Source: an uncultured Armatimonadetes bacterium (GTDB lineage Bacteria > Armatimonadota > Armatimonadia > Armatimonadales > Armatimonadaceae). Taken from it: a stretch of DNA of 58,391 nt. The stretch is taken from the NCBI GenBank assembly GCA_903881535.1, contig CAIRTT010000055.1:1-58391 (forward strand), in the 5' to 3' direction. The position numbers and the translations under genes were made by a program. Under the pieces are notes generated by a model that worked only from the letters and a program-made list of their open reading frames with translations, was not told the DNA's origin and did no database searches. Shown here one piece after another: positions 18,261 to 43,709 of this stretch (positions within the stretch are counted from its first letter, which is position 1; each line of letters starts with the position of its first letter).

Positions 18261-18319
18261 TTGACAACCTGCAAAAGTATTGTACACTAACCCTACGTTT
18301 CAAGAAAGGATAGTGTAAC
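18261..18319 (+). promoter_or_regulatory. sigma70-type promoter plus conserved leader for the replication block
   Basis: TTGACA (18261) - 16 nt - TACACT (18283), then AGAAAGGATAG (18303..18313) 6 nt before the GTG at 18320. Confidence 0.6.
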
Positions 18320-25641: not shown

Positions 25642-25925
25642 CGCGCATTCCCCTCGAGCCTGTCGGCCACCAGGGTCGCGTATCCTGCGATATCGCGCCA
25701 GCTGTCAACGTTATCGGGGTTGCCGTTGACAATGCGGCCGATCTTGTGAACGATCATGTGCATGGCCTCCTCTTGGTCAGGCTCGAATCTTGTCCCCACT
25801 AAGTCGCAATGCTGTTGCAGGACTGATTTGAGCTTGATCATGACCGTTGCGCCATTGATGAACAGACCATACTGCGTCTGCCGCGTGTCCAGAATGGTGT
25901 CGACTTTGGATTTTTTCTTTGCCAT
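25638..25925 (-). CDS. DUF6378-like phage protein (tentative)
   Basis: 95 aa. The pattern RQTQYG...MHMIVHKIGRIVNG...DSWRDIAGYATL is recalled from that family. Confidence 0.5.
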   Translation of the reverse strand: MAKKKSKVDTILDTRQTQYGLFINGATVMIKLKSVLQQHCDLVGTRFEPDQEEAMHMIVHKIGRIVNGNPDNVDSWRDIAGYATLVADRLEGNAR

Positions 25926-25928
25926 AAT

Positions 25929-26114
25929 TTACTTTCTGTTAATTGAAGGTTGATCAGCGCTCTTGGCGAACACGCTGTAGTAGCCGGCAGGCTGGGTCCC
26001 AAGCATCAGCCGAAGTTTCTCGGCCCCGCCCCATTCCCTGAACTTCTTCCACTCAGAGTCAGATAGGCGCACGGCCCGCGGCTTAAGGTCCTCAGGCGGC
26101 TTTGGTCTTGGCAT
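25929..26114 (-). CDS. small protein, possible DNA-binding
   Basis: 61 aa with the motif RAVRLSDSEWKKFREWG. Confidence 0.5.
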   Translation of the reverse strand: MPRPKPPEDLKPRAVRLSDSEWKKFREWGGAEKLRLMLGTQPAGYYSVFAKSADQPSINRK

Positions 26115-26268
26115 GATGCGCTCTCGAGTAAATGGTGAAAAATGTGTTCTTTGCCAAACTAGCTTGACGGCGCGCGGCGTCCGATGCCTTGATGTTTTTG
26201 TCCTGCAAAATGATGCTTGGACGGGGGTTTTCTTTCCACAGAAAGGGGGAGTCAGGGTGTTCTTTCAT
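26092..26268 (-). CDS. hypothetical 58-aa protein
   Basis: Hand-translated as MKEHPDSPFLWKEN...HHAKTKAA. Below the ORF-track cutoff. ATGA overlap with the upstream ORF. Confidence 0.4.
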   Translation of the reverse strand: MKEHPDSPFLWKENPRPSIILQDKNIKASDAARRQASLAKNTFFTIYSRAHHAKTKAA

Positions 26269-26435
26269 TTCACTTCCTTGCGTAAACGCTCCAACTCTTC
26301 CTGCGTAACAAACGGGATCCCTGTCGGGAAATCATCGCGCAGTCGTTGCATCTTTAGGCTGTAAGCCACAGCCATGCGCCGTACCCGCGACTCCATCTCA
26401 ATGCGGTTGAACTCGTCGTCTTCCTCAGTTCTCAT
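26265..26435 (-). CDS. hypothetical 56-aa protein
   Basis: Hand-translated as MRTEEDDEFNRIEMESRVRR...LRKEVK. ATGA overlaps at both ends. Confidence 0.5.
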   Translation of the reverse strand: MRTEEDDEFNRIEMESRVRRMAVAYSLKMQRLRDDFPTGIPFVTQEELERLRKEVK

Positions 26436-26608
26436 GCTTTCTCCTGTTTAAAGTACCATTTCCATTTGCGTTTCTTGGCTATCATGTCCAGCATTTTTTT
26501 GACGTACAGCTCAAGAGGGACGCCAGCTTTTTTCACCAATTCAACCTGCGTCCGGTTCAAAATTATTCTGCTGACTTTGTCTTGGCCCCTGACCTTTCTA
26601 ACGATCAT
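26432..26608 (-). CDS. hypothetical 58-aa basic protein
   Basis: Start at MIVRKVRGQ, chosen for its ATGA overlap with the upstream gene. Confidence 0.5.
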   Translation of the reverse strand: MIVRKVRGQDKVSRIILNRTQVELVKKAGVPLELYVKKMLDMIAKKRKWKWYFKQEKA

Positions 26609-26976
26609 GTGCTCTTCTCCTTGAGTATGCGTTCTGCCCATTTAGCTCCGCAGTAAAACATTGGTTCCGCACCTTCTCTCAATTCATCCGTCAGCCCTAC
26701 CCACTCACGCTTTGGATACAAAGGCCACACCTGCCCAAGCGGTGTAAACAGGGGGTCGTTCTTGTCAGTACTGACATGGTGGTTGGTGGGGTCGTACCAT
26801 GCTGTTGGTTTATCCATTGTGCGCTGTAACGATTGTGTAAAGTTTTCTAATTCAAGCACTTCGTTGATACTTCGGGCTTGTAGCTTTTGAATTGATTTAC
26901 TCATGCCGCGAAATAGGTTGTCCCTAACAATAAGCAGTTGCTCAGTAATCATGTGCATTCGTTCTTCGTCGGTCAT
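26605..26976 (-). CDS. hypothetical protein
   Basis: 123-aa ORF, translationally coupled to its neighbours. Confidence 0.6.
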   Translation of the reverse strand: MTDEERMHMITEQLLIVRDNLFRGMSKSIQKLQARSINEVLELENFTQSLQRTMDKPTAWYDPTNHHVSTDKNDPLFTPLGQVWPLYPKREWVGLTDELREGAEPMFYCGAKWAERILKEKST

Positions 26977-27281
26977 GTGTTCCCCCTGTTTCGAATAGCA
27001 TCAGCGCAATGAATAGGATCAGGGCATTGCACATTTTCATCCGATTTTCCCCATGCACGATATAAATCTTCACAAAGCATTGCACACGCCTCACGCTCTG
27101 CTGCTGCAATGTCGCGTTCGTACTCACCCCAGTTTTCTGGCGTCCATGTTCTATTGCGCTCATCAGCACGAATAATGGCTTCGAAGCGTTCAAGGCATCC
27201 ATACTTGCCGTTACAAGTGCAATCGCGCAAACCCGCCTCCCGCGCCATTTCCATAATGGTTCGTTTACGCCATCCAGTCAT
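26973..27281 (-). CDS. hypothetical Cys-rich protein
   Basis: 102-aa ORF with several Cys residues (CTCNGKYGC, CAMLC, QCPDPIHC). Confidence 0.6.
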   Translation of the reverse strand: MTGWRKRTIMEMAREAGLRDCTCNGKYGCLERFEAIIRADERNRTWTPENWGEYERDIAAAEREACAMLCEDLYRAWGKSDENVQCPDPIHCADAIRNRGNT

Positions 27282-27436
27282 TCTGAGTCCTCCAACGAGT
27301 CGTTAATCAGTTGTTGCTTGACGATCTCCAGCACACCAATCACAGTGGACATGTACAGGGTCTCATCAAACTCGTGGATGTCTTCCAGCAGTCTGTCAAC
27401 AAGTGCTTGGGCCACTGCGCCTTGGTTCAGGTTCAT
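27278..27436 (-). CDS. hypothetical 52-aa acidic protein
   Basis: Hand-translated as MNLNQGAVAQALVDRLLEDIHEF...DSLEDSE. ATGA overlaps at both ends. Confidence 0.55.
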   Translation of the reverse strand: MNLNQGAVAQALVDRLLEDIHEFDETLYMSTVIGVLEIVKQQLINDSLEDSE

Positions 27437-27684
27437 GCTTCACCCCTCAGTTGTTTCTGTTGCTCTTCATAGTCGGCTTGCCATTTCTTGCGCAGTTCTT
27501 GGCACTCTCCGCAGTGGCACTGGAATGTCCACTCGTCAGGGTCAGCAATGCCGCCCTCCGCCTTGACCGGTGCGCGGCCATAGTTATACGGTCTGGTTGG
27601 CTTGAGCGGCTCTATCCGATCAAACTGGCTCTTGCCCGCTTCGTAAAAATCCTTCTTCTTCCCTGTGCTGTTGTCTATACTCAT
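27433..27684 (-). CDS. hypothetical protein
   Basis: 83-aa ORF, coupled to its neighbours. Confidence 0.6.
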   Translation of the reverse strand: MSIDNSTGKKKDFYEAGKSQFDRIEPLKPTRPYNYGRAPVKAEGGIADPDEWTFQCHCGECQELRKKWQADYEEQQKQLRGEA

Positions 27685-27902
27685 TTCTTCCTCGCTTTCA
27701 GCATGGCGTCGGCAAACTCATATGCCATTTGTGCGTATGCGTCATAATTCCCAGCCCACTTGCCCGCATTTGCATGGAGCATCGAGGGCAACGCCTTGGC
27801 CGCAAAGTAGTCGCGTAGGGTCATGCCATTACTGCCGCCAATAATTTGTCCATTTCTGGGGTCAGTAATAAGACCTGTTGGGAATGCTGGTTCGTTTTTC
27901 AT
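27681..27902 (-). CDS. hypothetical protein
   Basis: 73-aa ORF, coupled to its neighbours. Confidence 0.6.
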   Translation of the reverse strand: MKNEPAFPTGLITDPRNGQIIGGSNGMTLRDYFAAKALPSMLHANAGKWAGNYDAYAQMAYEFADAMLKARKK

Positions 27903-28120
27903 GATGACTCCAACCCTCTGTCAAACGCCCATTTGTTGGGATCAACCCGCTCAGGTACAAATCGGGTGAGCAGCGTCGCTAGATACGTCTGCTTATCCTT
28001 CATCGCATACAGTGTGCGCATATCGCTGTAGTCCAACGTTATGCTTTTCACAGCCAACCCCATAGTCGGGCCACCCACCTTGGTAGATCGCTCGGTCCCA
28101 TCGTTTAAATGCAAAATCAT
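27899..28120 (-). CDS. hypothetical protein
   Basis: 73-aa ORF, coupled to its neighbours. Confidence 0.6.
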   Translation of the reverse strand: MILHLNDGTERSTKVGGPTMGLAVKSITLDYSDMRTLYAMKDKQTYLATLLTRFVPERVDPNKWAFDRGLESS

Positions 28121-28323
28121 TTGTTGCTCCTTTGTTCACGGCAAGCCTGCCGCTGCTCTTTGGTTATATCCGGATGCCCCTCCGGCAAGGAACAGTCCAC
28201 ACGGCCCATGTCCCCAATACCGGTAGCCAACACCACACCCAATGCCAACAGCGCCATTACCAACACAGCTGACCCTAAGTACCACGCCACTAACTCCACT
28301 TGATGTCTTAAACTCATCGCCAT
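28117..28323 (-). CDS. small membrane protein
   Basis: 68 aa with one hydrophobic helix (LVAWYLGSAVLVMALLALGVVLATGIG). Confidence 0.6.
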   Translation of the reverse strand: MAMSLRHQVELVAWYLGSAVLVMALLALGVVLATGIGDMGRVDCSLPEGHPDITKEQRQACREQRSNK

Positions 28324-28439
28324 ACCCCTTTGATTACAGTTTTGCCCTGCTTGGGCGGTTTGTCCTGCTTGACCGGCTGCGCCGAAGGATGTACCGTGCG
28401 CGCCGGTACATGGACCACGGACCGCGCAGCATGGACCAC
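28314..28439 (-). CDS. doubtful short ORF (GTG start)
   Basis: The 75-aa track ORF overlaps the upstream gene by about 100 nt. Only a GTG-initiated 41-aa version fits the gap. Coding character is weak. Confidence 0.25.
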   Translation of the reverse strand: MVHAARSVVHVPARTVHPSAQPVKQDKPPKQGKTVIKGVWR

Positions 28440-28440
28440 G

Positions 28441-28659
28441 TCAGTCTTCAGAACGAAGGTGAAAGCGAGAAATAAACTCGCTGCTCTTGATATCCCATGC
28501 ATGTGCCTTGCTCCCGCATCTGTGCTCTTCAGCTTGACCAATCACACGAAACAAACGCCAACAATCGTTGCATCTCCAACGAATATCTACCCGCTCATTT
28601 CGCCCCATGTCTATCCGCGTGAATACCACACGCTCCACATTGCTCTGCCTATTCATCAT
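28441..28659 (-). CDS. small zinc-ribbon-like protein
   Basis: Start at MMNRQSN with GGGAGGAGGGGG upstream. Contains a CNDC...HRC pattern. Confidence 0.55.
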   Translation of the reverse strand: MMNRQSNVERVVFTRIDMGRNERVDIRWRCNDCWRLFRVIGQAEEHRCGSKAHAWDIKSSEFISRFHLRSED

Positions 28660-28813
28660 CCCCCTCCTCCCATTCGTACACCGAGATCTCCCCAGGATCA
28701 AAACCAAGGCTCAAATAAACTTCGTCCAGAACCTCGGGCCCCGACTCACCCTCCTTGACATAATGATCACTGCGGCCAGAATCGTAGTTGATATACACAT
28801 GAAAGCGCTTCAT
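28649..28813 (-). CDS. hypothetical 54-aa acidic protein
   Basis: Hand-translated as MKRFHVYINYDSGRSDHYVKEGESGPEV...YEWEEGDDE. ATGA overlap with the upstream gene. Confidence 0.55.
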   Translation of the reverse strand: MKRFHVYINYDSGRSDHYVKEGESGPEVLDEVYLSLGFDPGEISVYEWEEGDDE

Positions 28814-29109
28814 AGATCACCCCCACGACTGTCCCAAATAGCTTGCTCAATCTCTTCAAACAGAGAGTCCCCCAATACGCCCGTCAGGCTCACACCCACC
28901 TCACCAAACAAATAGACGTACTCAATGGAGATCGCCTCCTCCACAGCAGGCTCGTAAAACGTGCCCTTCTCCGGCGGCGTGTAATCAAAGTAGATGTCCA
29001 AAGGAACATCGCACAGCTCCGTGTGAAACGCAAAATGGTTCAACCCCACCAAGTGCGAACGGTCCACCGGTATACCGGCAACTGGTACATCAGCATTTAT
29101 ATTTTTCAT
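28810..29109 (-). CDS. hypothetical protein
   Basis: 99-aa ORF, coupled to its neighbours. Confidence 0.6.
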   Translation of the reverse strand: MKNINADVPVAGIPVDRSHLVGLNHFAFHTELCDVPLDIYFDYTPPEKGTFYEPAVEEAISIEYVYLFGEVGVSLTGVLGDSLFEEIEQAIWDSRGGDL

Positions 29110-29348
29110 ATCTTTCCCCTTAATGTGCTCGTAAATGCCGGCTTTGCCGGTTGATGGCGACCATACGAAGCCAACAGCTCCGCTTGCTCACGCAAAATAT
29201 TTGAATCCATAGGACGCGCCATCTTCCAACGGTCCCCCAAAAAACGAATTGACTGCACCCACTTGCGCATGTTGGCGCGCTGCATGTCCCGAGAGACATG
29301 GCCCACGGACCAGAGACGACGGGCCTGCACTAAACGTGTCGTGTTCAT
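29106..29348 (-). CDS. hypothetical protein
   Basis: 80-aa ORF, coupled to its neighbours. Confidence 0.6.
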   Translation of the reverse strand: MNTTRLVQARRLWSVGHVSRDMQRANMRKWVQSIRFLGDRWKMARPMDSNILREQAELLASYGRHQPAKPAFTSTLRGKI

Positions 29349-29587
29349 TGCAAAGTCTCCTTCGAGCGAGACATGAAGTCATCGTGTAAAGCCTCAATGC
29401 CCTGCATCAAGGTGCGCTTGGGCATCCCCATGCCAATGCTTAAAACGGTGGCAGCAGCCATTAAACCAAGAACGCAATCGACAGGTTTTCCAATTTGTTC
29501 CTGAGAAAACCGTACAAGGATTTCAGCATTTTGCATCGCTGTTAGCATCATGTCTTGGGAATCTACGGAGTCGTTACTAGTTGTCAT
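29345..29587 (-). CDS. hypothetical protein, first cistron of the leftward operon
   Basis: 80 aa, preceded on the minus strand by AGAAAGGATAG (complement of 29591..29601). Confidence 0.6.
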   Translation of the reverse strand: MTTSNDSVDSQDMMLTAMQNAEILVRFSQEQIGKPVDCVLGLMAAATVLSIGMGMPKRTLMQGIEALHDDFMSRSKETLQ

Positions 29588-29590
29588 TAG

Positions 29591-29646
29591 CTATCCTTTC
29601 TGTGTTGAGAAGGTGTTATTATCAGGGTACAAGCGACACGTGTCAA
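29591..29646 (-). promoter_or_regulatory. strong sigma70-type promoter plus conserved leader for the leftward operon
   Basis: On the minus strand: TTGACA (29646..29641) - 17 nt - GATAAT (29623..29618), then AGAAAGGATAG. Confidence 0.7.
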
Positions 29647-29673
29647 GAAGAAAATAGAAAATATTTTGGGGAT

Positions 29674-29764
29674 TTTATTGTGGGAAACCCTTATGGGAAT
29701 ATATACAGGGTGGGAATGTACACAGGGTGTGGATTTATACAGAGTGGTGGTCTATATGTGGGTT
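29674..29764. repeat. iteron-like array of imperfect 13-18-bp direct repeats
   Basis: Units are atatacagggtggga, atgtacacagggtgtgga, tttatacagagtggtggt and ctatatgtgggtt, plus weaker units upstream (ttattgtggga, cttatggga). Confidence 0.6.
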
Positions 29765-29801
29765 TTGATCTAAGGAGGGGGGTTTTTATGTGTTTTTGCG
29801 G

Positions 29802-30021
29802 TTCCCTATAGAACTTTTTAGGGTAAGAGGTGTTTTTATTTTTTTAAAACGTCAAAATGGCGTAATAGACGTAATGGTGTAAGAAGTGAGTGTTTATGCG
29901 GGTTGTGGACTAGACGGTGACATTACAGGGGTAGTTGAGAGACGTAATTACTGGGATGTCCCAGACTTTTTTTTTGGAAGGTTTTTTTTTCATCGATACC
30001 CCTAAAAAGTTCTATAGGGAA
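29802..30021. repeat. 22-bp perfect inverted repeat pair separated by 176 bp
   Basis: ttccctatagaactttttaggg (29802..29823) is the reverse complement of ccctaaaaagttctatagggaa (30000..30021). The interior holds an AT-rich tract, AGACGTAAT x2 and T9-GGAAGG-T9. Confidence 0.85.
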
Positions 30022-30070
30022 ACAAGATTGGTTTTGGAGAGGGGAAAGGGCCTTGGACCATGGAGCGCGC

Positions 30071-30098
30071 TTGACATTGTTGTTGCAGCCGCTACATT
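30071..30098 (+). promoter_or_regulatory. sigma70-type promoter for the rightward terS block
   Basis: TTGACA (30071) - 16 nt - TACATT (30093), 33 nt upstream of the ATG at 30131. Confidence 0.55.
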
Positions 30099-30130
30099 GG
30101 TGTTCATTGAAATTGCATGGAGCAAAAGTT

Positions 30131-30361
30131 ATGTTACAAATAGAGAAAGATATTCCTGTTCCGGAGCAGACAACGAAGTATCCGTTCAAGGATATGGAGA
30201 CGGGCGACAGCATCTATTTTGAGGATGAGAGACAGGCCAACAGTGCCCGTGTATCGGCATTGCGGTTTGCGGGCCGTCAGGAGGCCGTCTGGGGCTTTAC
30301 GCTGCGAAAGACGGACCCAGACAGGGATAAGGTAGGATGGCGGCTCTGGAGGACTGAATAA
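30131..30361 (+). CDS. small conserved phage protein
   Basis: Start at MLQIEKDIPVPE with GGAG 9 nt upstream. The track start at 30053 would overlap the promoter. Confidence 0.55.
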   Translation: MLQIEKDIPVPEQTTKYPFKDMETGDSIYFEDERQANSARVSALRFAGRQEAVWGFTLRKTDPDRDKVGWRLWRTE

Positions 30362-31026
30362 TGGGCAAGAAGGACGTTTGGAATGTGCCCCCTGTCACGC
30401 CTGATAAGGCGCGCAATAGGTTGGCCACTCCCGTCAAACCCCTGAAGAAGTACAAAAGCCTTAGCGACAAGGAATGGACCTTTGTTCAGGAGCTTGTTGC
30501 GGGTGATGGACGGGTGACCATGAAGGAGGCAGCGCTTCGCGCAGGCTATACGGAAGTGAGCGCCTCTGTGATGGCGTGGAAGCTCACGAACCCTGATATC
30601 AATCCTCACGTGGTGTCGGCAATTCAGGCTTACCGTGCTGAATTGGCATCCAAGTACAACACGTCCTACGAGCGGCACATGAAGGACCTGCAGACGATCA
30701 GGGACAAGGCTCTGGAAGCAGGTGCGTACGCAGCTGCTGTACAGGCCGAATATCGCCGTGGCCAAGCCTTGGGTACGATCTACGTAGAGCGCAAGGAAAT
30801 CAGGCATGGCACGATCGACAGCATGAGCAAAGAGGAAGTGCAGCGCAAGCTGGACGAATTAAAACGGCTATATGGCGGTCCCCCACCGACTGCCTTGATT
30901 GATGCCGATACCGGAAAGGTGCTCGACAGTGTCGCAAGAGAAAAAGACCCCGCTTTTGAATCTGGAGTGGAAGAACCTCCGACTGACATTTTTGAACTGG
31001 ACCCCTCCGATGGCCCAGACTCCTGA
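30361..31026 (+). CDS. terS: terminase small subunit (Terminase_2-like)
   Basis: Pattern LSDKEWTFVQELVAGDGRVTMKEAALRAGYTEVSASVMAWKLTNPDINPHVVSAI, followed by a coiled-coil region. Confidence 0.7.
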   Translation: MGKKDVWNVPPVTPDKARNRLATPVKPLKKYKSLSDKEWTFVQELVAGDGRVTMKEAALRAGYTEVSASVMAWKLTNPDINPHVVSAIQAYRAELASKYNTSYERHMKDLQTIRDKALEAGAYAAAVQAEYRRGQALGTIYVERKEIRHGTIDSMSKEEVQRKLDELKRLYGGPPPTALIDADTGKVLDSVAREKDPAFESGVEEPPTDIFELDPSDGPDS

Positions 31027-31444
31027 GGCGCGCTTTTCTGCACGTGTTCGCGATGGCTTGGGCGCGGTCGGATGCGATGTGGAGCGAATCGAAAACAGGG
31101 TAAACCTTGGCGTGTCCGACATGGTGGTCGGCGTGGGTTCGCGCTATGTCACGATCGAGCTCAAAGCGGTTACCGCGGGGCTTAAGGTTACGCTGCGCCC
31201 CCACCAGATTGCCTTTTTGCTTCGCCATGGCCGCGCCGGCCGGCCGGCGTTTGTGCTTGTGTGGCAAGCAGCGCGCAAGGATAGCCCTGACTTTGTCCAT
31301 TTGTACCGCGGGCGCGATGCGATTGCCCTTGCTGAATCGGGTTTGCGCCTGATGCCTATGGCCGCATGGCCAAGCCGTGGCCTACCATGGCAAGAGCTGA
31401 AGGATGCCTTGATAGATGATGACTATCAGGGGGCTGAAAATTAA
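31010..31444 (+). CDS. VRR-NUC / PD-(D/E)XK nuclease
   Basis: Start at MAQTPEARF, a 17-nt overlap with terS. Contains GVSDMVV...VTIELK...LRPHQIAFL. Confidence 0.6.
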   Translation: MAQTPEARFSARVRDGLGAVGCDVERIENRVNLGVSDMVVGVGSRYVTIELKAVTAGLKVTLRPHQIAFLLRHGRAGRPAFVLVWQAARKDSPDFVHLYRGRDAIALAESGLRLMPMAAWPSRGLPWQELKDALIDDDYQGAEN

Positions 31445-31456
31445 AGAAAAAATCAA

Positions 31457-31524
31457 TTAGACAGGGCTCAAATTGGCGTAGAATTAACGCATCGGATCCC
31501 CCGATACCTAGAAAGGATAGAGAG
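31457..31524 (+). promoter_or_regulatory. cassette module A (promoter, short hairpin, conserved leader)
   Basis: TTAGAC (31457) - 16 nt - TAGAAT (31479). Hairpin atcgg/ccgat at 31491..31505. Leader TAGAAAGGATAGAGAG lies directly before the ATG at 31525. Confidence 0.6.
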
Positions 31525-31734
31525 ATGAAAACCTTAACCCATGAACAAGAGGCATTCGTTCAGGCTTATGCGCGAATCGTTGCGGTGGCATCCGAGGAAG
31601 TCGTTCGGATTTACTTTGAGATGGACGATGACGATAAGTTTTATGAAACATACCAACATGAGTATGCAAGCGTAACGGATGCCTATCTGCTGTGGGACGC
31701 TGCCCGCCGTTACGAAGCAGGGGAGACAAAATGA
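31525..31734 (+). CDS. hypothetical protein
   Basis: 69-aa ORF after module A. Confidence 0.6.
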   Translation: MKTLTHEQEAFVQAYARIVAVASEEVVRIYFEMDDDDKFYETYQHEYASVTDAYLLWDAARRYEAGETK

Positions 31735-32099
31735 AAAACGTTTACGCTTATTTCAGGGACTGTAAAAACTGCGGCTTAGAAATCCCTGACTTTGACCAAT
31801 TCGCCCGATATAACGCCGTTGAAATTGATCCGGTTTTTGTTTTTTATGATGACCTTGGGAACGTTAACGGGTACGAGCGAACCGATGAGGCGGAAATTAA
31901 ATTGCACCCTTATTGGAATGTGGTGTATAGCGTGTATTTGCACCACGACGCAATGCACCCCGACAATCGCGGCTTTGGTGGTGCCCAATGCGTTGGAGAC
32001 TTTCCTTCGCTTGAGATTGCTCAGACCTTCGCGGCTTTTATGGATCAGCTGCTAAACCTTGCAAACTACATCAAAACAACACCGGAGAAAACAGCATGA
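31731..32099 (+). CDS. hypothetical protein
   Basis: Start at MKNVYAYF with GGGAGA upstream and an ATGA overlap. Confidence 0.6.
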   Translation: MKNVYAYFRDCKNCGLEIPDFDQFARYNAVEIDPVFVFYDDLGNVNGYERTDEAEIKLHPYWNVVYSVYLHHDAMHPDNRGFGGAQCVGDFPSLEIAQTFAAFMDQLLNLANYIKTTPEKTA

Positions 32100-32260
32100 C
32101 CGTTTCCGAATTGCTTGCTCAGTTTAAAGATGTCGCCGGCGACACACTGGTTTATGTCTGGTTAGGTGGCGAAAGGCACCCAGTTTTGAACGTGGATGAT
32201 TCTTTTTTAAGCCCAAAAGACGGCGGATTTATTGAAATAAATGTGTTGACCGATGCTTAG
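32096..32260 (+). CDS. hypothetical 54-aa protein
   Basis: Hand-translated as MTVSELLAQFKDVAGDTLVYVWLGGERHPVLNVDD...NVLTDA. ATGA overlap. Its 3' end carries the module B promoter. Confidence 0.5.
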   Translation: MTVSELLAQFKDVAGDTLVYVWLGGERHPVLNVDDSFLSPKDGGFIEINVLTDA

Positions 32261-32311
32261 GTTGTGTTATACTTAACCCTGTGGAATAACCCACACTTAG
32301 AAAGGATAGAG
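32246..32311 (+). promoter_or_regulatory. cassette module B
   Basis: TTGACC (32246) - 16 nt - TGT-TATACT (-10 at 32268). Hairpin tgtgg/ccaca at 32280..32295. Leader CTTAGAAAGGATAGAG lies before the ATG at 32312. Confidence 0.65.
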
Positions 32312-33016
32312 ATGTTAAAAACTGTAGCCGTCATGTCTAATAAAAAGACCGGTCCCATTGCAGGCACTTACCGCAGTGGGGCGCATGAGACCTATGCAAC
32401 ATGCCCTAAAACGTGTGGATTGCATCCAAAAAGCGAGACCGGATCAGAACAGATTGATCCGGAATACTTGGCGGCATTGCTTGAAGCCGTACCGCGTAGG
32501 GGCATTGCATGGACTTATTCACACTTTGACGCTAAGGGTTTACCCATGTGGGAACAGGGCAAAACTGTGATCAATGCAAGCTGTGACACGGAAGCCGAAG
32601 CCGTGGCAGCTGTGAAAATTGGCCGGCCGGCAACATTTGCCGCGCCCTTGAATACCGCGGACCAATGGCCCAAAACTGTGGAAGGCGTTAAATTTGTCCG
32701 GTGCCCTGCCGATATGTCCGAATCATTCACGTGTCAACAATGCGGGAATGGATCCCCACTGTGTGCCCGCGGTGACCGTGATTTTGTTGTGGTGTTTGTT
32801 GCGCATGGTAGCGGTGCCAAAAAAGTAGGAACCGATCAAGAGGGCGGATGCTATGCTGCACAGGGTCCGGTAGCTATGCAATGGCACGGAACCCGCAAAA
32901 CAGGTGCCGCCAATGACGCTCAGGCCTTGCGCGCTTTCGCTAAGTCTCTCCCGTTCGGGTCCATGCTGCGCCATCATGTCGCCGGCGATATTGGACGGGA
33001 CCGGATCCAATGCTGA
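32312..33016 (+). CDS. Cys-rich protein, GP88-like (tentative)
   Basis: Start at MLKTVAV after the conserved leader. Contains CPKTCG, FTCQQCGNGSPLC, GGCYA and LRHHVAGDIG. Confidence 0.5.
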   Translation: MLKTVAVMSNKKTGPIAGTYRSGAHETYATCPKTCGLHPKSETGSEQIDPEYLAALLEAVPRRGIAWTYSHFDAKGLPMWEQGKTVINASCDTEAEAVAAVKIGRPATFAAPLNTADQWPKTVEGVKFVRCPADMSESFTCQQCGNGSPLCARGDRDFVVVFVAHGSGAKKVGTDQEGGCYAAQGPVAMQWHGTRKTGAANDAQALRAFAKSLPFGSMLRHHVAGDIGRDRIQC

Positions 33017-33210
33017 TATTTGCCGTACTAATCATGCTCATTTTGTGGTGGATTGTTGACTTATTCGATCCTAATGGTTAACCGGACCGGCAAAACCCGC
33101 GGTTCCTGCCGGTTTCCCTCTGTGGTTATGCATTTATTGCATAACCTTGCTGAGTTAAGCCGGTCAGGGTAAACCTGCCCCGTGGTCCCTGTTGCTTGCT
33201 GCGTTAAACG

Positions 33211-33244
33211 TGGCGCTTGGCGCTTGGGCCGTGGCGCTTGGCGC
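33211..33244. repeat. GGCGCTT boxes / 13-bp direct repeat tggcgcttggcgc x2
   Basis: Copies at 33211..33223 and 33232..33244. Further TTGGCGCG and GTGGCGCGCG copies lie at 33274..33298. Confidence 0.8.
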
Positions 33245-33257
33245 GGCTTGCAGTGAT

Positions 33258-33275
33258 AGTTAGTGCTCACTAACT
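33258..33275. promoter_or_regulatory. 18-bp palindrome agttagtgctcactaact
   Basis: 8-bp arms that are exact reverse complements around a 2-nt centre. Confidence 0.7.
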
Positions 33276-33298
33276 TGGCGCGCGGACCGTGGCGCGCG

Positions 33299-33320
33299 CA
33301 TTGTTTCACGTGAAACAATG
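33299..33320. promoter_or_regulatory. 22-bp perfect palindrome cattgtttcacgtgaaacaatg
   Basis: The two 11-nt halves are exact reverse complements, with a CACGTG centre. Confidence 0.8.
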
Positions 33321-33358
33321 GCCGCGGGCCGGCTATCGGGGCGCGTGGTTTGATAGGA

Positions 33359-33442
33359 AAATACAATGGGCCGTGGCCCACGGACCGCGGTATAATTGAG
33401 ACACTGCGGCACGGTGCCGCAGTACTTAGAAAGGATAGAGAA
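33359..33442 (+). promoter_or_regulatory. cassette module C
   Basis: AAATACAATGG (33359) - GC-rich palindromic 23-nt spacer - TATAAT (33391). Hairpin actgcggca-cgg-tgccgcagt at 33403..33423. Leader CTTAGAAAGGATAGAGAA. Confidence 0.65.
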
Positions 33443-33640
33443 ATGATGAGCTTTATTACACCTTCAAGGAAATACCACGTAGAGAGCCACGGTAACGGGT
33501 GGGCTTATGAGGTAACCCACCGCGAGAGCGGCGCGTCGTTCTGGGTTCAAGACCACGACGCGGAACAGCTGCAGCGTGACACGGACGACTTCACACAAGA
33601 GGATATCTTGTCTGAATATTTAGACATGTTGGGGGAATAA
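33443..33640 (+). CDS. hypothetical protein
   Basis: 65 aa, start at MMSFITPS after the leader. Confidence 0.6.
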   Translation: MMSFITPSRKYHVESHGNGWAYEVTHRESGASFWVQDHDAEQLQRDTDDFTQEDILSEYLDMLGE

Positions 33641-33641
33641 C

Positions 33642-33770
33642 ATGACGCACGACGAAATTCGGGAATACTACGATTCCCACCTCAACATGACGCTGCGAGA
33701 GCTCTCGCAAATGACCGGCTTGAGCATACCCGTGCTCAAGGCAATTATTTTGGAAGGGGCCGTTATATGA
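33642..33770 (+). CDS. 42-aa helix-turn-helix-like protein
   Basis: Hand-translated as MTHDEIREYYDSHLNMTLRELSQMTGLSIPVLKAIILEGAVI. ATGA overlap with the next gene. Confidence 0.5.
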   Translation: MTHDEIREYYDSHLNMTLRELSQMTGLSIPVLKAIILEGAVI

Positions 33771-34165
33771 GCTGCTTTGTTGTTTCCCCACTGCACATCG
33801 ATATCCTTGTATCGTGGGCCATGGCCCACAAGGCCCCGTGCTTTCCGGCACCCTTGACGCCCGTGATGGTTGCTAACCTGTTGGCTGACGCCAACAATCA
33901 GGCTTATGCAGAACGCTACAAGGAACCAGTGACAAACCACTACCGGTTTGAATTTCGAGAGACCGCGGGAAAGGTGCCGGCCCTGCAGATTCTTAAGGCC
34001 TGTCGCTCCCTTAAGTACCAGTGCAGCGACTGGCGCGAGTGGAAAGAAAGCCGCGCGTTTCAACTGGTTGACGCTATTGAGAGTATGGCAATTCATAAGC
34101 TCCCAGGCTATGACGACATGTTGTGGGAGCTGACCCCGTATCTGCGGAACAGTCTTCCCGCATAA
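33767..34165 (+). CDS. hypothetical protein
   Basis: 132-aa ORF. Confidence 0.6.
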   Translation: MSCFVVSPLHIDILVSWAMAHKAPCFPAPLTPVMVANLLADANNQAYAERYKEPVTNHYRFEFRETAGKVPALQILKACRSLKYQCSDWREWKESRAFQLVDAIESMAIHKLPGYDDMLWELTPYLRNSLPA

Positions 34166-34167
34166 CG

Positions 34168-34190
34168 CTATCGGGGCCATGCCCCGATAG
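34168..34190 (+). terminator. GC hairpin after stop codon (terminator-like, no U tract)
   Basis: ctatcgggg-ccatg-ccccgatag: a 9-bp perfect stem. Confidence 0.45.
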
Positions 34191-34192
34191 AT

Positions 34193-34275
34193 AAATACAA
34201 TGGCCCGCGGGCCATTGTCCGCGGTATAATTGATTCAACCAACAATCAGTTGGTCAACCTAGAAAGGATAGAGAA
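34193..34275 (+). promoter_or_regulatory. cassette module D
   Basis: AAATACAATGG (34193), 16-bp palindrome atggcccgcgggccat, TATAAT (34225), weaker hairpin accaac/gttggt (34238..34254), leader CCTAGAAAGGATAGAGAA. Confidence 0.65.
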
Positions 34276-34704
34276 ATGTCAAACCCCTTCCGTAAACACG
34301 TCAGCAACCTGTTCGGCTCACGCGGCTGTGATATCGACAGCGCATTGAATGACGCTAATGAAATTGTGCAGGCCCTGCCGGTCGAATCACGCGCGCATGC
34401 AATGACCGCGCTCATGATACTGGTCAACACTGCAGCCGGTGCCTTTGATCAGGCTCAGGGTCCAAGCCCTGAGAAGCTCGCAATACTGGACCTGATCCGG
34501 ACCGAGATAGGTAACTGGGCAAGTAGTAACCTTGACGATCACATTGACGGGTGGATCGGTGACAACTTGGACAATCACCTAGACAACTGGGCAACTAACA
34601 ACTTGGACATGGACCACAGCATTGAGGAGTGGATGAACAGCAACATACAAGGTACGGTTAGCGAAGCAATAGACAACATGGACCTAGTGGTTCGTGTGCG
34701 ATAG
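34276..34704 (+). CDS. hypothetical protein with NLD-x-H/W repeats
   Basis: 142 aa. The C-terminal half reads NLDDHIDGWIGDNLDNHLDNWATNNLDMDHSIEEW. Confidence 0.6.
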   Translation: MSNPFRKHVSNLFGSRGCDIDSALNDANEIVQALPVESRAHAMTALMILVNTAAGAFDQAQGPSPEKLAILDLIRTEIGNWASSNLDDHIDGWIGDNLDNHLDNWATNNLDMDHSIEEWMNSNIQGTVSEAIDNMDLVVRVR

Positions 34705-34706
34705 TT

Positions 34707-34793
34707 AAATACAATGGACCTCAGGCCACGGCCTGAGGTATAATCTAAGTACTGGATCAGCCGATCCAGTACAACTCAGAAAGAAGAAACACC
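34707..34793 (+). promoter_or_regulatory. cassette module E
   Basis: AAATACAATGG (34707), hairpin acctcaggc-cacg-gcctgaggt running into TATAAT (34739), UTR hairpin gtactggatc-agcc-gatccagtac (34749..34772), degenerate leader AGAAAGAAGAAAC. Confidence 0.65.
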
Positions 34794-35069
34794 ATGACTA
34801 AGATCCTCATTATCGACAGCACCCGTTATGCTTTACCTGCGGGCATGAGCACCAAGGACCAACAGGCATTAGCCGGCTTTCTGGTCACACTGACCAGAGT
34901 GGATTATGAATACTGCTACGGGGATGAAGAGAATGCCTACTACGCAAGAGACGGGGCAGCCATCAGCATCAGTGAGCAGGAGCTGATGACCAAAGCCGAG
35001 GCCAAAGCCAAAGCAGAAAAGACCCGCTTAGAGTACGAAGCGAAGAAAGCGGCACAAGAAAAAGTATAA
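34794..35069 (+). CDS. hypothetical protein
   Basis: 91-aa ORF with a Lys/Glu/Ala-rich C-terminus. Confidence 0.6.
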   Translation: MTKILIIDSTRYALPAGMSTKDQQALAGFLVTLTRVDYEYCYGDEENAYYARDGAAISISEQELMTKAEAKAKAEKTRLEYEAKKAAQEKV

Positions 35070-35097
35070 GCAACTGGGGGCCACGGCCCCCATTATT

Positions 35098-35153
35098 GTG
35101 TTATACTCTAAGTACTGAAGCACGGTGCTTCAGTACTTAGAAAGGATAGAGAG
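35098..35153 (+). promoter_or_regulatory. cassette module F
   Basis: TGT-TATACT (-10 at 35102), 15-bp perfect UTR stem (35108..35122 paired with 35126..35140, loop cgg), leader CTTAGAAAGGATAGAGAG. Confidence 0.65.
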
Positions 35154-35342
35154 ATGAACGCACTTACAACACCCGACCAGATCCAAGCCTACCGCAGGCT
35201 AACCCTAATCCAGATGCTCAAGCTGGAAATCAGGGGGATGCATAAGAAAGGCCGAAGCGCCTACAGTATCCTGAAAGAAGAGACAGGACTGAAGGGCACA
35301 AGGCAGCAGCTGCTAGAGCAGCTAACCAAACCCACACAGTAA
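35154..35342 (+). CDS. hypothetical protein
   Basis: 62-aa ORF. Confidence 0.6.
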   Translation: MNALTTPDQIQAYRRLTLIQMLKLEIRGMHKKGRSAYSILKEETGLKGTRQQLLEQLTKPTQ

Positions 35343-35411
35343 CGCAACAGCGCTCCGCGGCCCCGCGGAGCGCATGCATGAGCCTTCCGACAAGGGGGGA
35401 GGGCCATAACG

Positions 35412-35450
35412 AGGCCCTAGCTCTAGAGCTAGGGCCTTCTCCCTGTTTTA
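35412..35450 (+). terminator. 26-bp perfect palindrome followed by a T-rich tail (terminator closing the cassette array)
   Basis: aggccctagctct/agagctagggcct (35412..35437), then tctccctgtttta. A second hairpin, gcgctccgcgg/ccgcggagcgc, lies at 35350..35373. Confidence 0.55.
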
Positions 35451-35552
35451 GCCCCAGAATTATGCCCAGAGAACCTGGACCCCCACCCCCAGAAAAGGCC
35501 CCCTTGGTCCGTGATCCGTGATCCTGGGTTATATTTATAAAAATTTCAAAAC

Positions 35553-37043
35553 GTGGCCCTTGGTCCACGCACCTATATGCAGCCAATTCCTGACGATGTC
35601 CAAGCGGAGCAGTTAAAACTTGAACTGCGGTTACGTACTTTGGAGGCGCATGATCGTGCAACCACGGGCTTTTTAGATTTCTGTCGATATGTGTGGCCGG
35701 AGATGTTGGTTGGTGAGCATCATTTGCGGATTGCGAAGGCGCTGGACAGGGTGGTTTCTGGAGAGTGCAAGCGGTTGATGATTGCGATGCCCCCGCGCCA
35801 TGGTAAGAGTCAGATGGGCAGTTATTTGTTTCCGGCATATCTCATGGGCCGTGATCCGACGTCCAAGTTAATTGTGGGATCCCACACGGCGGAGTTAGCG
35901 CAGCGTTTTGGCCGGATGATCAGGAACCTTGTGGATGATGAGCGGTACAAGGAGTTATTTCCTGGAACGTCTTTGTCGGTGGATTCCAAGGCTGCGGGCC
36001 GGTGGTCCACGAGCCAGGGAGGGGAGGCGTTTTTTATTGGTAAGGGTGGTGCAATGACGGGCCGCGGTGGTGACGTGGTTATTTTGGATGATATTTTGGA
36101 TGAGCAGGATGCGTTGTCGGATACGGCGATGGAGAACACGTTTGAGTGGTACACGTCGGGGCCTCGGCAGCGCCTGCAGCCCAATGGTTCTATTGTGGTG
36201 ATTAATACGCGGTGGAAGACGGATGATTTGACGGGGCGTTTGCTTAAGCAGCAGGGGAACTTGAAGGCGGATCAGTGGGAGGTGTTGGAGTTTCCGGCGA
36301 TCTTACCCAGTGGCAATGCCCTTTGGCCGGGGTACTGGAAGATTGAGGAGTTGGAGAAGGTCAAATTATCGATTGGGATGCAGAAGTGGAATGCTCAGTG
36401 GCAGCAGCAGCCTACGGGATCGGAGGGTGCGATCTTGAAGCGGGAGTGGTGGAGGAAGTGGAAGAATGATGTACCGCCTGTTTGTGAGTATGTGATCCAG
36501 AGTTATGACACGGCGTACTCTAAGAAGGAGACGGCGGATTATTCTGTGATATCCACGTGGGGTGTATTTTTTCCCAGTGCTGATTCGGGGCCAAATTTAA
36601 TTTTGTTGAATGTGCGCCGTGGTCGGTGGGACTTCCCGGAGTTAAAGCGTATTGCCAAGGACGAGTATCGGTACTGGAATCCTGACAATGTATTGATTGA
36701 GGCGAAGGCTACGGGTACGCCGTTGCAGCAGGAATTGAGGAAGATGGGGATACCGATTCAGATGTATTCTCCGGGGGGCAGGCGGCATGGTCAGGACAAG
36801 GTGAGCCGTGCGAACGCTGTGGCTCCGTTGTTGGAGAGCGGGATGATTTGGTATCCTGAGGATGAGGAGTGGGCGCAGGAGATGGTGGAGGAGTGCGCCG
36901 CGTTTCCTGTTGGGAGTCACGATGACCAGGTGGATTCAGCGGTAATGGCTTGGACGCGGTTTCGTGCTGGTAATTTCATTTCGCTGGAAGATGATGACAA
37001 CGAAGAGAAAGAGCCGGATAATAGGATACTGGAATATTATTAA
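35553..37043 (+). CDS. terL: terminase large subunit
   Basis: Walker A-like MPPRHGKS, Walker B VVILDDILDE, and nuclease motifs SYDTAYSKKETADYSV and GSHDDQVDSAVMAW. The start is ambiguous (GTG 35553 or ATG 35577) and neither has an RBS. Confidence 0.9.
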   Translation: MALGPRTYMQPIPDDVQAEQLKLELRLRTLEAHDRATTGFLDFCRYVWPEMLVGEHHLRIAKALDRVVSGECKRLMIAMPPRHGKSQMGSYLFPAYLMGRDPTSKLIVGSHTAELAQRFGRMIRNLVDDERYKELFPGTSLSVDSKAAGRWSTSQGGEAFFIGKGGAMTGRGGDVVILDDILDEQDALSDTAMENTFEWYTSGPRQRLQPNGSIVVINTRWKTDDLTGRLLKQQGNLKADQWEVLEFPAILPSGNALWPGYWKIEELEKVKLSIGMQKWNAQWQQQPTGSEGAILKREWWRKWKNDVPPVCEYVIQSYDTAYSKKETADYSVISTWGVFFPSADSGPNLILLNVRRGRWDFPELKRIAKDEYRYWNPDNVLIEAKATGTPLQQELRKMGIPIQMYSPGGRRHGQDKVSRANAVAPLLESGMIWYPEDEEWAQEMVEECAAFPVGSHDDQVDSAVMAWTRFRAGNFISLEDDDNEEKEPDNRILEYY

Positions 37044-40000: not shown

Positions 40001-40456
40001 GCAATGGCCACCAAGATGGAAGGCAAGCTGATGAAGCACTCTGTGGGCGGATATGCCGAGGGCGATAGCTACGGTACGATGTATACAGGCTTGCCATATG
40101 GCGGCAAAAAGGCGTTTGACGACGGCCTTGTCAAGGTGTTCTCGCTGCGCAACGAAAAAGGCTACCCTACCACCACGCTGGAGATGGCCAAGAGCGCCCC
40201 GGACCCAGATGCACCATGGATTGTCACGCAGATCCGCGGCAAATTTAACTCTCAGCCGCCTGAACAAGAATTTGAATCGATCTTTAAGTTTTTGGACAAA
40301 CAGCCTGCAGACATTCAGATTAAAGCTGGTTCATACGCAAACAATGTTCGCGGCGAACAGGCTCAAGGCGGAAGCCGTGTAAACTGGGAAAAAGCGTATG
40401 ATGACTACCGCTTCAACCCCGGCTCAGAGTACAAAGATGCGATCACCGAATTCTGA
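37076..40456 (+). CDS. 1126-aa multidomain virion-associated protein with N-terminal SLT lytic transglycosylase domain
   Basis: The N-terminus IAGVESEYTPSAQNTRSTAGGLFQVIDDTW matches the SLT catalytic Glu-Ser context. Also has two AEGGEVK motifs and ARHMLAAATLAKKVG...THE. The rest is unassigned. Confidence 0.6.
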   Translation: MAQDIIEKIRAAAQAKGVDPDTALRIAGVESEYTPSAQNTRSTAGGLFQVIDDTWKRYGGKPGMKHDVDENIRVGTDILADNMQKMKQALGRAPRASEVYAAHFFGPQVAQTVLATDPDTALNKVLTPKVLEANPQLRKKTVGQFVGELQAKFDKEAPAKAVETPAQKEMPDFEAVGRSQLTAQATPAPQDRMQQLQQRVAQLGPGYQAALAAAVLAEDDDEEADARKEGRAREMLAQENAAPPPQLLANLNIRASNPFPEAKMAEGGEVKNEDESLSEDQGQVYPGREEVSPFAYAGKHKTSTADIESLMAGLNVDKATLGINVARMKQGDKDTLAGALMAAYRERVGDATVNASVSQPIGSGAAGTYMGGANISYPVGQGHVMAGVNGMRDSEQGPRVTGYNLGYSGKVGPGTLDASINFPKGASPMGQLQYRIPLAEGGEVKEPSILSLLDYSRSTAHEMYPGEQGQDDKQDAARHMLAAATLAKKVGPDVAEFLGKTHEFITSPAKAALYAMGLGKMPKDYEQDLHNNRRGIEVGKGAKSQADLERLINLDVERAAKQKMSDRPWVYRAGGGDAEPTAEEIAAASQPARVNPMIQRQGEAARRLAQMRDVNTLPDPRTYAAASGFMGQAPDEQGFSVMHPDAAAIRKAGQAGFAGSFVAPALGMVMSGMAPSRAALGTNLAKMEGAVKPRGGTWMPSGRLDDLLDNYANEASRANPQNADIYRDIMEKKARKYFQNDFGTADDKLRVAIAKGEISLFGKDVETLPPYLLEAARNPNAVGHEIAKRHLEKGYDTAADVRGQMYTADKPEAYTLRQVKENEIRQKMEQEGVPLEYQNHPFYNTVDSSDISKYPSNYEQVGRLLEQADKGVLPPNLLRALQQNEVMYDVGTPSLSLFDAREIGKGIAALDPSKLKSMSFEQMVIESAKKLEPIRDYNAAIEKAASGAQVPKEVLFRFTQPVVDTDAGKWVQLTDAMATKMEGKLMKHSVGGYAEGDSYGTMYTGLPYGGKKAFDDGLVKVFSLRNEKGYPTTTLEMAKSAPDPDAPWIVTQIRGKFNSQPPEQEFESIFKFLDKQPADIQIKAGSYANNVRGEQAQGGSRVNWEKAYDDYRFNPGSEYKDAITEF

Positions 40457-40473
40457 TCACGTAAGGAACAACC

Positions 40474-43700: not shown

Positions 43701-43709
43701 GGAACAGAT

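Follow-up and report, generated by a model that had tools for sequence, protein, structure and literature searches.

We propose that the interval of about 4 kb between the terminase genes terS and terL of an uncultured phage is probably a hyperplastic accessory-gene bay composed of six autonomous expression modules. The phage DNA is contig CAIRTT010000055.1, deposited within an uncultured Armatimonadetes assembly (GCA_903881535.1), and its full length of 58,391 nt is referred to here as the window. Each module (U1 to U6) consists, in this order, of a -10 hexamer that is frequently extended to TGnTATAAT, a hairpin, a short C/A-rich linker and a purine-rich Shine-Dalgarno leader located 2-3 nt before an ATG, and the genes behind the modules are unrelated to one another. 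A preliminary description of this DNA had placed six -10 elements in the interval, each followed by a hairpin and a near-identical leader before the start codon. All of these elements were found at the proposed positions, with five exact leaders and one degenerate copy, and the folds were confirmed.

The leader, TAGAAAGGATAGAGA, occurs in five exact copies (31509, 32298, 33427, 34260 and 35138) and nowhere else in the genome, and the degenerate copy, TCAGAAAGAAGAAAC, lies at 34776. With up to three mismatches, seven sites are found in the window against 0.52 expected, a number that none of 100 shuffles reached. The six modules were also recovered independently by a covariance model (R1), the seed of which comprised 15 modules from related phages and none from the window. 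In an unfiltered search of both strands of the whole genome, the matches of this model were precisely the six modules (E 4.5e-10 to 1.7e-4); the best match after them had an E value of 0.15. The hairpins are 5-10 bp long and begin at the seventh nucleotide after the -10 element in six modules out of six. In the predicted folds of the 5' untranslated regions (UTRs), the Shine-Dalgarno region is mostly unpaired.

All six modules are located on the forward strand. U1 (31476-31523) carries TAGAAT at 31479-84, a hairpin at 31491-31505 and a leader at 31509-23 ahead of the ATG at 31525 (model E 9.7e-5). In U2 (32246-32312), a -35 sequence, TTGACC, at 32246 precedes TGtTATACT with the -10 at 32268-73, which together score 10/12, with the TG, in the promoter scan; the hairpin (32280-32295) is followed by a leader (32298-32312) whose final A doubles as the A of the ATG at 32312 (E 1.7e-4). 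U3 (33352-33441) opens with an upstream box, GATAGGAAAATACAATGG, and a GC hairpin, followed by TATAAT at 33391-96, a 9-bp hairpin at 33403-33423 and a leader at 33427-41 before the ATG at 33443 (E 1.3e-8; fold z -3.6). The arrangement is similar in U4 (34186-34274), with a box copy of 83% identity and a GC hairpin at 34197-34218, TATAAT at 34225-30, a hairpin at 34238-34254, a leader at 34260-74 and the ATG at 34276 (E 2.6e-7). U5 (34700-34791) gave the best match to the model (E 4.5e-10); besides an upstream box it has a hairpin (34718-34739) that abuts the -10 TATAAT at 34739-44, and a second hairpin (34751-34770) and the degenerate purine leader (34776-90) precede the ATG at 34794. Finally, U6 (35099-35152) has TGtTATACT with the -10 at 35102-07, a 9-bp hairpin at 35114-35134, a leader at 35138-52 and an ATG at 35154 (E 6.2e-7). 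The boxes ahead of U3, U4 and U5 belong to a second repeat family of the form GATAGnnAAATACAATGG - GC hairpin - GGTATAAT.

The design is conserved in related phages. A terL-based scan of IMG/VR provided 80 loci with terL proteins that are 74-96% identical; about 50 of them include both terS and terL, always separated by 3-8 kb. Within the terS-terL intervals (294 kb), the family leader AGAAAGGATAGAG, allowing at most two mismatches, has 216 copies on the coding strand, against nine in the flanks (698 kb) and 26 on the opposite strand. An ATG follows 2-3 nt past the leader in 162 of the 216 copies and 0-4 nt past it in 200, and the matches of the covariance model are all (113/113) on the forward strand and upstream of terL. 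The family consensus reads: A-rich tract, weak TTG, GTGn-TATAAT, 5-6 nt, (C)ACTG-stem-loop-stem-CAGT, ACAACCCT, AGAAAGGATAGAG, 2-3 nt, ATG. Among 75 distinct promoters, TATAAT is preceded by GTGn (exact TGn in 40/75), an A-tract covers -41 to -27, a weak TTG occupies the -35 position, and CAC lies 5-7 nt downstream of the -10. Roughly half of the family promoters additionally have a stable hairpin ending 0-3 nt before the -10. In distant clades the architecture is kept with clade-specific leaders, namely ATACAGGGAGAAA, CATACAGGAGAAA (in the phage DSL-LC04), AAAGGAGAAATGAGAA, AGAAAGTGAGAAAG and TAGAAAGAATAG.

The conservation of the hairpin lies in its pairing. Folding of the 36 nt that precede the leader gives -12.4 kcal/mol compared with -6.9 for random segments (z = -2.9, 159 distinct contexts), and compensatory changes occur at all eight pairs of the seed alignment (MAFFT). 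In the alignment of 95 distinct model matches (A2), 98.9% of cells are paired and 241/656 are changed on both sides, against 17-37% paired in slid controls; this alignment was fitted to the model structure and the seed was picked by eye, both of which inflate the pairing statistics. U6 and its orthologue in the closest relative (L002) differ by two compensatory pair changes. Stems and loops are variable in sequence across the family, and the hairpin flanks, cACTG...CAGTaCAACC, are semi-conserved.

It could be argued that the repeats have no function of their own and result from a few recent tandem duplications of a single start region. The hairpin and leader of U6 are indeed 89% identical to those of U3, and the boxes ahead of U3, U4 and U5 share 75-83% identity. 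However, the downstream genes are mutually unrelated, the architecture extends to about 80 phages and to clades with other leaders, and the hairpins covary without decay. Relatives do carry the modules, and the promoter and hairpin are on average no more alike within one genome than between orthologues (0.58 vs 0.62). We therefore consider it extremely improbable. Concerted evolution of the promoter and hairpin within genomes was likewise judged weak (0.58 within one genome against 0.56-0.62); only the leader and the -10 are homogenised.

We suggest that each module would act as follows. The promoter would be of the host sigma-70 type, the observed elements being a strong -10 that often carries a TGn extension, a weak -35 and an upstream tract rich in A. 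Transcription would start 7 nt after the -10, at the first base of the hairpin, and the 5' end of the messenger would then be fully base-paired. The hairpin is predicted to begin at +1 because CAC, the usual start-site context, sits 5-7 nt after the -10. By analogy with the ompA and papA stem-loops, such a 5' hairpin may protect short transcripts against RppH and RNase E, whose attack depends on the 5' end. These enzymes require an accessible unpaired 5' end, and 5'-terminal stem-loops stabilise Escherichia coli mRNAs (PMC3997798 and references 93-95 therein). A stabiliser role fits here because the hairpin is conserved in structure only. The unstructured linker, ACAACCCU, and the purine-rich leader, AGAAAGGAUAGAG(A), would next expose the Shine-Dalgarno sequence AAGGA for ribosome binding, at a distance of about 7 nt to the AUG. 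The first cistron would be followed by zero to two translationally coupled small open reading frames (ORFs), and the unit would be closed by a GC hairpin, often abutting the next -10 as a terminator/promoter composite. Three other readings of the +1 hairpin were discarded: an RNase III site would need longer stems, an intrinsic attenuator a U tract, which is lacking, and an operator a shared sequence, which is not seen.

Pairing with 16S alone does not account for the clade specificity of the leader and its conservation beyond AAGGA, for which a trans-acting partner or homogenisation through recombination at the leader could be responsible. In the former case, the hairpin and/or the leader would be a recognition site for a phage or host factor that co-regulates the class, such as a translational repressor or a sequence-specific endoribonuclease shutting off early mRNAs, comparable to RegA/RegB of T4, or would form a nut/put-like signal for antitermination; neither element would then be just a passive stabiliser or ribosome site. 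The leader is conserved across 13-15 nt, which exceeds the needs of 16S pairing, its sequence is clade-specific within a constant architecture, as co-evolution with a trans partner would give, and it is found on all promoter-proximal cistrons of one putative temporal class; the same argument has been made for the SAS motifs of mycobacteriophages (PMC3203893). On the other hand, stems and loops vary freely and keep pairing alone, which speaks against a hairpin recognised by its sequence. In addition, the large ORFs and PHROG matches examined revealed no RNA-binding regulator, and two leader sites outside the array are devoid of a hairpin. We regard such a factor as unlikely.

These two sites are informative with regard to timing. 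When AGAAAGGATAG is searched with at most one mismatch, seven sites are found in the genome, all of them just 3' of a promoter-like site and just 5' of a start codon. The first site outside the array (18261-18322, forward strand) consists of TTGACA-17-TACACT followed by AAGAAAGGATAGTGTaacGTG, with the leader at 18303, and serves the first gene of the replication operon. The second (29585-29646, reverse strand) has TTGACA-17-GATAAT (29646-29618) followed by CAGAAAGGATAGCTAATG, with the leader at 29601, ahead of the first gene of a leftward operon of about 20 small ORFs (25336-29587). Neither site has a hairpin, which implies that the leader can work without one. Elsewhere, the ribosome-binding sites of genes are ordinary and varied, also at the gene that opens the late block. 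Judging from these sequences, the leader appears to be a mark of promoter-proximal cistrons behind sigma-70-type promoters. As the same leader follows two canonical sigma-70 promoters of the small-gene and replication operons, the array is probably a set of early units intended for the unmodified host RNA polymerase, and the leftward small-ORF operon (25336-29646) is likely a second early or accessory region.

An opposite timing would follow if the modules were middle or late -10-only promoters of a phage-modified RNA polymerase, as in T4 late transcription, with the ORFs co-expressed with the packaging and structural genes. This proposition would be in line with the position of the array inside a long rightward block of terS, terL and structural genes, with the weak -35 matches and with a small 'sigma-like' protein annotated in relatives, which has a homologue in the window at 21639-21848. 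In DSL-LC04, the protein annotated as 'sigma-G' has 85 aa and its nature is unclear. Nevertheless, the -10 is the consensus sigma-70 TATAAT with a TGn extension that offsets the poor -35, the leader also stands behind the two textbook TTGACA-17-TAnAnT promoters described above, and the start of the late block (around 30071-30131) has a different leader. Middle or late promoters are, in our opinion, quite improbable.

The modules also coincide with places of gene exchange. The preliminary description had presented the interval as an accessory locus with gain and loss of cassettes, and this is upheld by the relatives, in which modules are gained, lost and replaced with junctions at modules; gene order is not invariant. 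The nuclease gene upstream of the array and the DUF7227 gene are shared across the family, as are, patchily, the 142-aa and 91-aa genes, and the remaining seven ORFs of the window are found only in L002. Module maps of 27 non-redundant loci reveal a backbone of nuclease, DUF7227, family 3, family 5 and family 2, between which whole modules are inserted or absent, with extra genes appended at module tails. The order is at times altered, the 62-aa gene preceding the 91-aa gene in four loci and following it in the window. In at least five independent cases, 42-nt promoter and hairpin segments that are 95-100% identical stand ahead of different gene families, with the same gene upstream. In pairwise comparisons, homology either breaks off, in both genomes, between +11 and +22 of the leader or sets in again at the promoter or leader. 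Over all pairs, 289 of 578 homology blocks have their left end within -5 to +4 of a leader start, and 7.4% of right ends lie at +8 to +25 in both genomes against 2% expected, although block ends at the leader are partly due to BLAST extension through this conserved sequence. The cases of identical promoters with different genes are not explained by such extension.

The expectation that junctions would be bounded by the repeats thus holds across the family, whereas the two indels that separate the window from L002 are single genes, with one edge in a promoter and the other indel inside an operon. The 54-aa gene (32094-32260) is absent from L002, the right edge of this indel lying between the -35 and the -10 of U2, and L002 has an additional gene within the U3 operon. 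Given these positions, exchange takes place both at modules and inside operons.

Mobility at fixed sites could also be attributed to the hairpins acting as DNA-level recombination sites (attC-like or cruciform) processed by the adjacent nuclease, which would amount to an integron-like, enzyme-driven system. A PD-(D/E)XK/Hjc-like nuclease gene always stands immediately before the array, the flanks of the hairpin are semi-conserved and the junctions cluster at modules. Yet the junctions are at the leader and start codon and not at the hairpin, the scan of the 20 larger ORFs revealed neither an integrase nor a recombinase, the fixed 7-nt distance from the -10 to the hairpin suits the 5' end of a transcript better, and the overlap of the nuclease gene with terS suggests a role in packaging. 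This makes a DNA-level site very improbable.

We rather suggest that the leader itself is probably the exchange junction: the promoter and hairpin would stay with the upstream gene, and the sequence after the leader would be replaced, inserted or lost, either by short-homology recombination at the leader or through selection for insertions that land behind a ready expression signal. A further step, which we put forward as a doubtful but conceivable speculation, is that the leader, in each clade in its own version, is kept as a crossover site of phage-wide cassette exchange and not for translation alone. Co-infecting members of this very abundant freshwater family would trade early accessory genes, possibly anti-defence genes, at the terS-terL dock, in a recombinase-free analogue of the integron to which the nuclease might contribute. 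If this were true, a gene recombined behind the leader would at once be provided with a promoter, with a ribosome site and with an mRNA whose 5' end is protected.

Several observations weigh against the autonomous expression modules proposed here, in addition to the inflation of the pairing statistics and the BLAST effect mentioned above. The U tract is missing from most closing hairpins, and most promoters match TTGACA at only 3-4 of 6 positions of the -35. Some hairpins of the window are short (5 bp in U1 and U2, 6 bp in U4), and the fold z-scores of single UTRs are modest (-0.4 to -3.6). The two leaders outside the array function, as far as can be judged, without a hairpin. Treating modules as units of linkage found little support in the gene-adjacency test, in which adjacency is conserved at 65% across module junctions and 79% within modules, a modest gap. 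Lastly, promoter function, start sites, timing and mRNA stabilisation are predictions from the sequence.

The preliminary description counted 11 ORFs of 42-234 aa in the interval, and this count is correct, with a possible extra ORF of 23 aa. Searches against Pfam, PHROGs and NCBIfam with the ORFs of the array returned only DUF7227 and three PHROGs of unknown function, and PDB sequence searches with four proteins and one profile gave nothing below E 0.02. The suggestion that these ORFs have host-takeover or anti-defence roles is pure conjecture. The genes of U1 (31525-32260) encode proteins of 69 aa (31525-31734), 122 aa (31731-32099) and 54 aa (32096-32260), with ATGA-type overlaps and no family matches. 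U2 (genes at 32312-33081) is followed by the DUF7227 protein (32312-33016) and by the possible 23-aa hydrophobic ORF (33010-33081). The DUF7227 protein is Cys-rich and matches Pfam PF23872 at 1e-31; its gene is the conserved core gene of the interval, present in nearly all relatives, and is the one universally conserved cassette gene. It has 537 metagenome protein clusters at 90% identity, with no functional name among the matches listed, and its AlphaFold model (pLDDT 65, moderate confidence) gave no Foldseek match in the PDB better than E 0.25.

Behind these genes lies a non-coding GC-rich stretch of about 270 nt (33083-33351), at the place where most relatives have a family-3 gene of 320-350 aa (MAHMID...PWHGLG), of which no remnant was detected by tblastn. 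The stretch contains CTTGGCGC..CCGTGGCGC repeats and a partial copy of the upstream box at 33315-33330; the partial module copy that had been described at 33312-33357 was recovered as repeat families D3 and D4. Direct repeats of the form CTTGGCGC..GGnCCGTGGCGC at 33216 and 33274, as well as palindromes, were also observed there.

U3 (genes at 33443-34190) precedes ORFs of 65 aa (33443-33640), 42 aa (33642-33770) and 132 aa (33767-34165), the last being an ORFan with two clusters among 5.8e9 proteins, and then a 10-bp GC hairpin at 34168-34190 (-18.5 kcal/mol). The single gene of U4 (34276-34704) encodes the 142-aa protein, belongs to family 5 and is patchily conserved among relatives. The gene of U5 (34794-35092) encodes 91 aa and is followed by a terminator-like hairpin at 35075-35092 and TTATTGTGTT. 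The family of this gene has its own leader variant (AGAAAGAAGAGAG / TCAGAAAGAAGAAAC) without the GGA core, observed at 34776-34793 in the window and in several relatives (L010 at 1091, L078 at 3002, L041 at 2860 and L053 at 7220). In this case, the leader variant travels with its gene. U6 (35154-35437) contains the 62-aa gene (35154-35342; phrog_19182, function unknown), after which two perfect GC hairpins (35350-35373 and 35412-35437) stand ahead of terL. All four GC hairpins described earlier after stop codons are present, at -17 to -25 kcal/mol, and only the one at 35075-35092 is followed by a T-rich run.

The gene directly upstream of the array (31010-31444, forward strand; PHROG 2165/93) had been called VRR-NUC. 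An invariant nuclease motif, D..ExK..Q (D37, E50-x-K52, Q66), in the family supports a PD-(D/E)XK (VRR-NUC/Hjc-like) nuclease, whereas the domain name itself falls below the Pfam thresholds: among 18 family members, Pfam VRR_NUC had no match at E <= 1 and five gave weak Hjc matches, and a profile search of the PDB returned weak matches only. The gene overlaps the stop codon of terS by 17 nt and holds the same place in essentially all relatives. Because of this overlap with terS, it may belong to the packaging machinery and not to the cassette array.

It is instructive to compare the modules with known systems, the nearest of which are found in T4-like phages and in cluster K mycobacteriophages. 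The former carry promoter early stem-loop (PeSL) elements (Arbiol et al. 2010, PMC2839356; Comeau et al. 2014, PMC4122927). In both PeSL and the modules, short composite motifs are repeated in a hyperplastic region (here six in 4 kb and none elsewhere in the genome), a sigma-70-type promoter (predicted in the modules), a stem-loop and a Shine-Dalgarno sequence stand before the start of a small gene that is mostly an ORFan, each clade has its own consensus, degraded copies occur, and the motifs stand at insertion, deletion and replacement junctions between related phages. The hairpin found 0-3 nt before the -10 at half of the promoters further resembles the terminator/promoter composite of PeSL. 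PeSL promoters are defined by -35 and -10 elements with a spacing of about 17 nt; here the -10 is strong (TATAAT, TGn in 40/75) and the -35 a weak TTG. The stem-loop of PeSL is upstream of the promoter (PMC4122927), whereas the conserved, covarying hairpin is here downstream of the -10, at the predicted +1, and the most conserved part is the 13-15-nt leader, which is the junction site, and not the promoter. The analogy drawn in the preliminary description accordingly holds for repeated modules at indel junctions and fails for the position of the hairpin and for the exchange junction, which is the Shine-Dalgarno leader. The phage also differs, being an unrelated 58-kb member of an uncultured freshwater group with its array between terS and terL. 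A further trait ascribed to PeSL is that DNA lying between two elements is excised in mini-circles.

A second comparison concerns the start-associated sequences (SAS) and extended SAS (ESAS) of cluster K mycobacteriophages (Pope et al. 2011, PMC3203893). SAS are asymmetric motifs of about 13 bp that contain a Shine-Dalgarno sequence a few nucleotides before the ATG (3-7 nt for SAS) of a subset of non-structural genes; they occur in a single orientation, accompany different gene families in different phages, vary among subclusters and have an inverted repeat immediately upstream at about half of their sites. The SAS consensus, 5'-GGGATAGGAGCCC, however, differs from AGAAAGGATAGAG, as does the host phylum, and each motif is here tied to its own -10 at a fixed distance. 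The 17-bp inverted repeats of ESAS are conserved in sequence, show departures that do not support RNA pairing and were proposed to be protein-binding DNA sites, in contrast to the stems described here, which vary and covary.

Like lambdoid morons, to which they had also been compared, the modules would be autonomous small units with a promoter-like element and a closing hairpin, lying among conserved late or packaging genes and bringing in accessory genes that are not essential. Morons, however, are individually unrelated insertions and have no shared leader or hairpin module, they are defined in temperate phages and expressed from the prophage whereas no lysogeny gene was found here among the 20 larger ORFs, and several of the 'terminator' hairpins lack the U tract, the T-rich tail being present only at 35075-35092. 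A 5' hairpin ahead of a ribosome site is known from the T7 gene 10 leader, which combines a 5' stem-loop with a strong Shine-Dalgarno sequence. The ompA and papA stabilisers (PMC3997798) would share a hairpin at or near the 5' end, an unstructured ribosome-binding region and a requirement for structure rather than sequence, with the difference that the 5' ends are here deduced only from the spacing to the -10. Unlike integron attC sites, which have conserved R''/R' cores and a tyrosine-recombinase integrase next to the array, the modules are not accompanied by any recombinase among the 20 larger ORFs, and their junctions are at the leader and not at the hairpin. The array is a new form of phage regulatory cassette, belonging neither to PeSL nor to SAS/ESAS nor to morons.

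With about 58.3 kb, the window represents an entire phage genome, in which nt 1-128 are identical to nt 58264-58391; with these ends, the genome is circularly assembled or terminally redundant. A rightward block runs from about 30.05 kb through terS (30361-31026), terL (35577-37043), a 1126-aa protein containing a transglycosylase, the portal and the head and tail genes, and over the ends to about 16 kb. For terL, the ATG at 35577 is a more likely start than the previously proposed 35553. Replication genes (primase, helicases, PolA) are rightward at 18.3-25.3 kb, and the approximately 20 small ORFs of the leftward operon run from 29587 to 25336, mostly with ATGA overlaps. Neither an RNA polymerase, a sigma factor nor a repressor was recognised among the 20 larger ORFs. 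The sole deposited relative is the metagenome-assembled phage DSL-LC04, with 65.7% nucleotide identity across one third of the query; it has been proposed as the type of a new family without cultured members, in a paper that does not mention promoter, hairpin or leader motifs (PMC10611076). Rfam gave no match in the whole window at gathering thresholds. A scan of 185,579 genomes detected no prophage copy, its only matches being two contigs of metagenome-assembled genomes (a Verrucomicrobia bin and a Crocinitomicaceae bin), which are probably binned phage DNA.

Other repeats were observed in this genome and its relatives. The intergenic region from which the leftward operon and the late block diverge (29650-30050) is AT-rich (about 45% GC) and holds three TAyACAGrGTGG-like repeats near 29690-29760 as well as long A/T runs; from these features, it could contain operators or an origin. 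A second shared start motif is found on late genes, at the portal gene (40450-40486) and at the gene at 43710 (43686-43722): it spans 37 nt, CAyGTAAGGAACAnnnATGGCnATnGAAA, is 76% identical and includes the first codons. In-frame repeats are present in structural genes, with three 18-nt tandem units (7731-7792) in a 1157-aa protein and copies of a repeat of about 50 nt, spaced by about 150 nt, in a 575-aa tail-fibre-like protein (52965-53744). In several relatives, the non-coding stretch just upstream of terL contains tandem or dispersed repeats (L054 7291-7400; L001 7960-8640; L051/L066 around 7150-7800), such as five 23-nt tandem copies of TTGATCTGTCCCTATTTATTCGG in L054 and GGCCCGTGG-type repeats in others, which may be packaging-recognition or replication sites. 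An enrichment of CCGTGG/CCACGG as a pac or terminase-binding signal was discarded, as it is inconsistent among relatives.

This phage family is abundant in freshwater metagenomes. The signature of (TGn)TATAAT, 6 nt, hairpin, linker, clade leader and ATG finds independently expressed, probably early accessory genes in uncultured phages, and early accessory genes are the usual hunting ground for host-takeover and anti-defence genes. Furthermore, more than 150 distinct +1 hairpins before one constant leader constitute a natural test set for the effect of 5' structure on mRNA stability and expression. At the evolutionary level, the modules would represent a second, independently evolved case of regulatory cassettes serving as gene-exchange junctions, extending the PeSL idea beyond T4-like phages with another internal layout.

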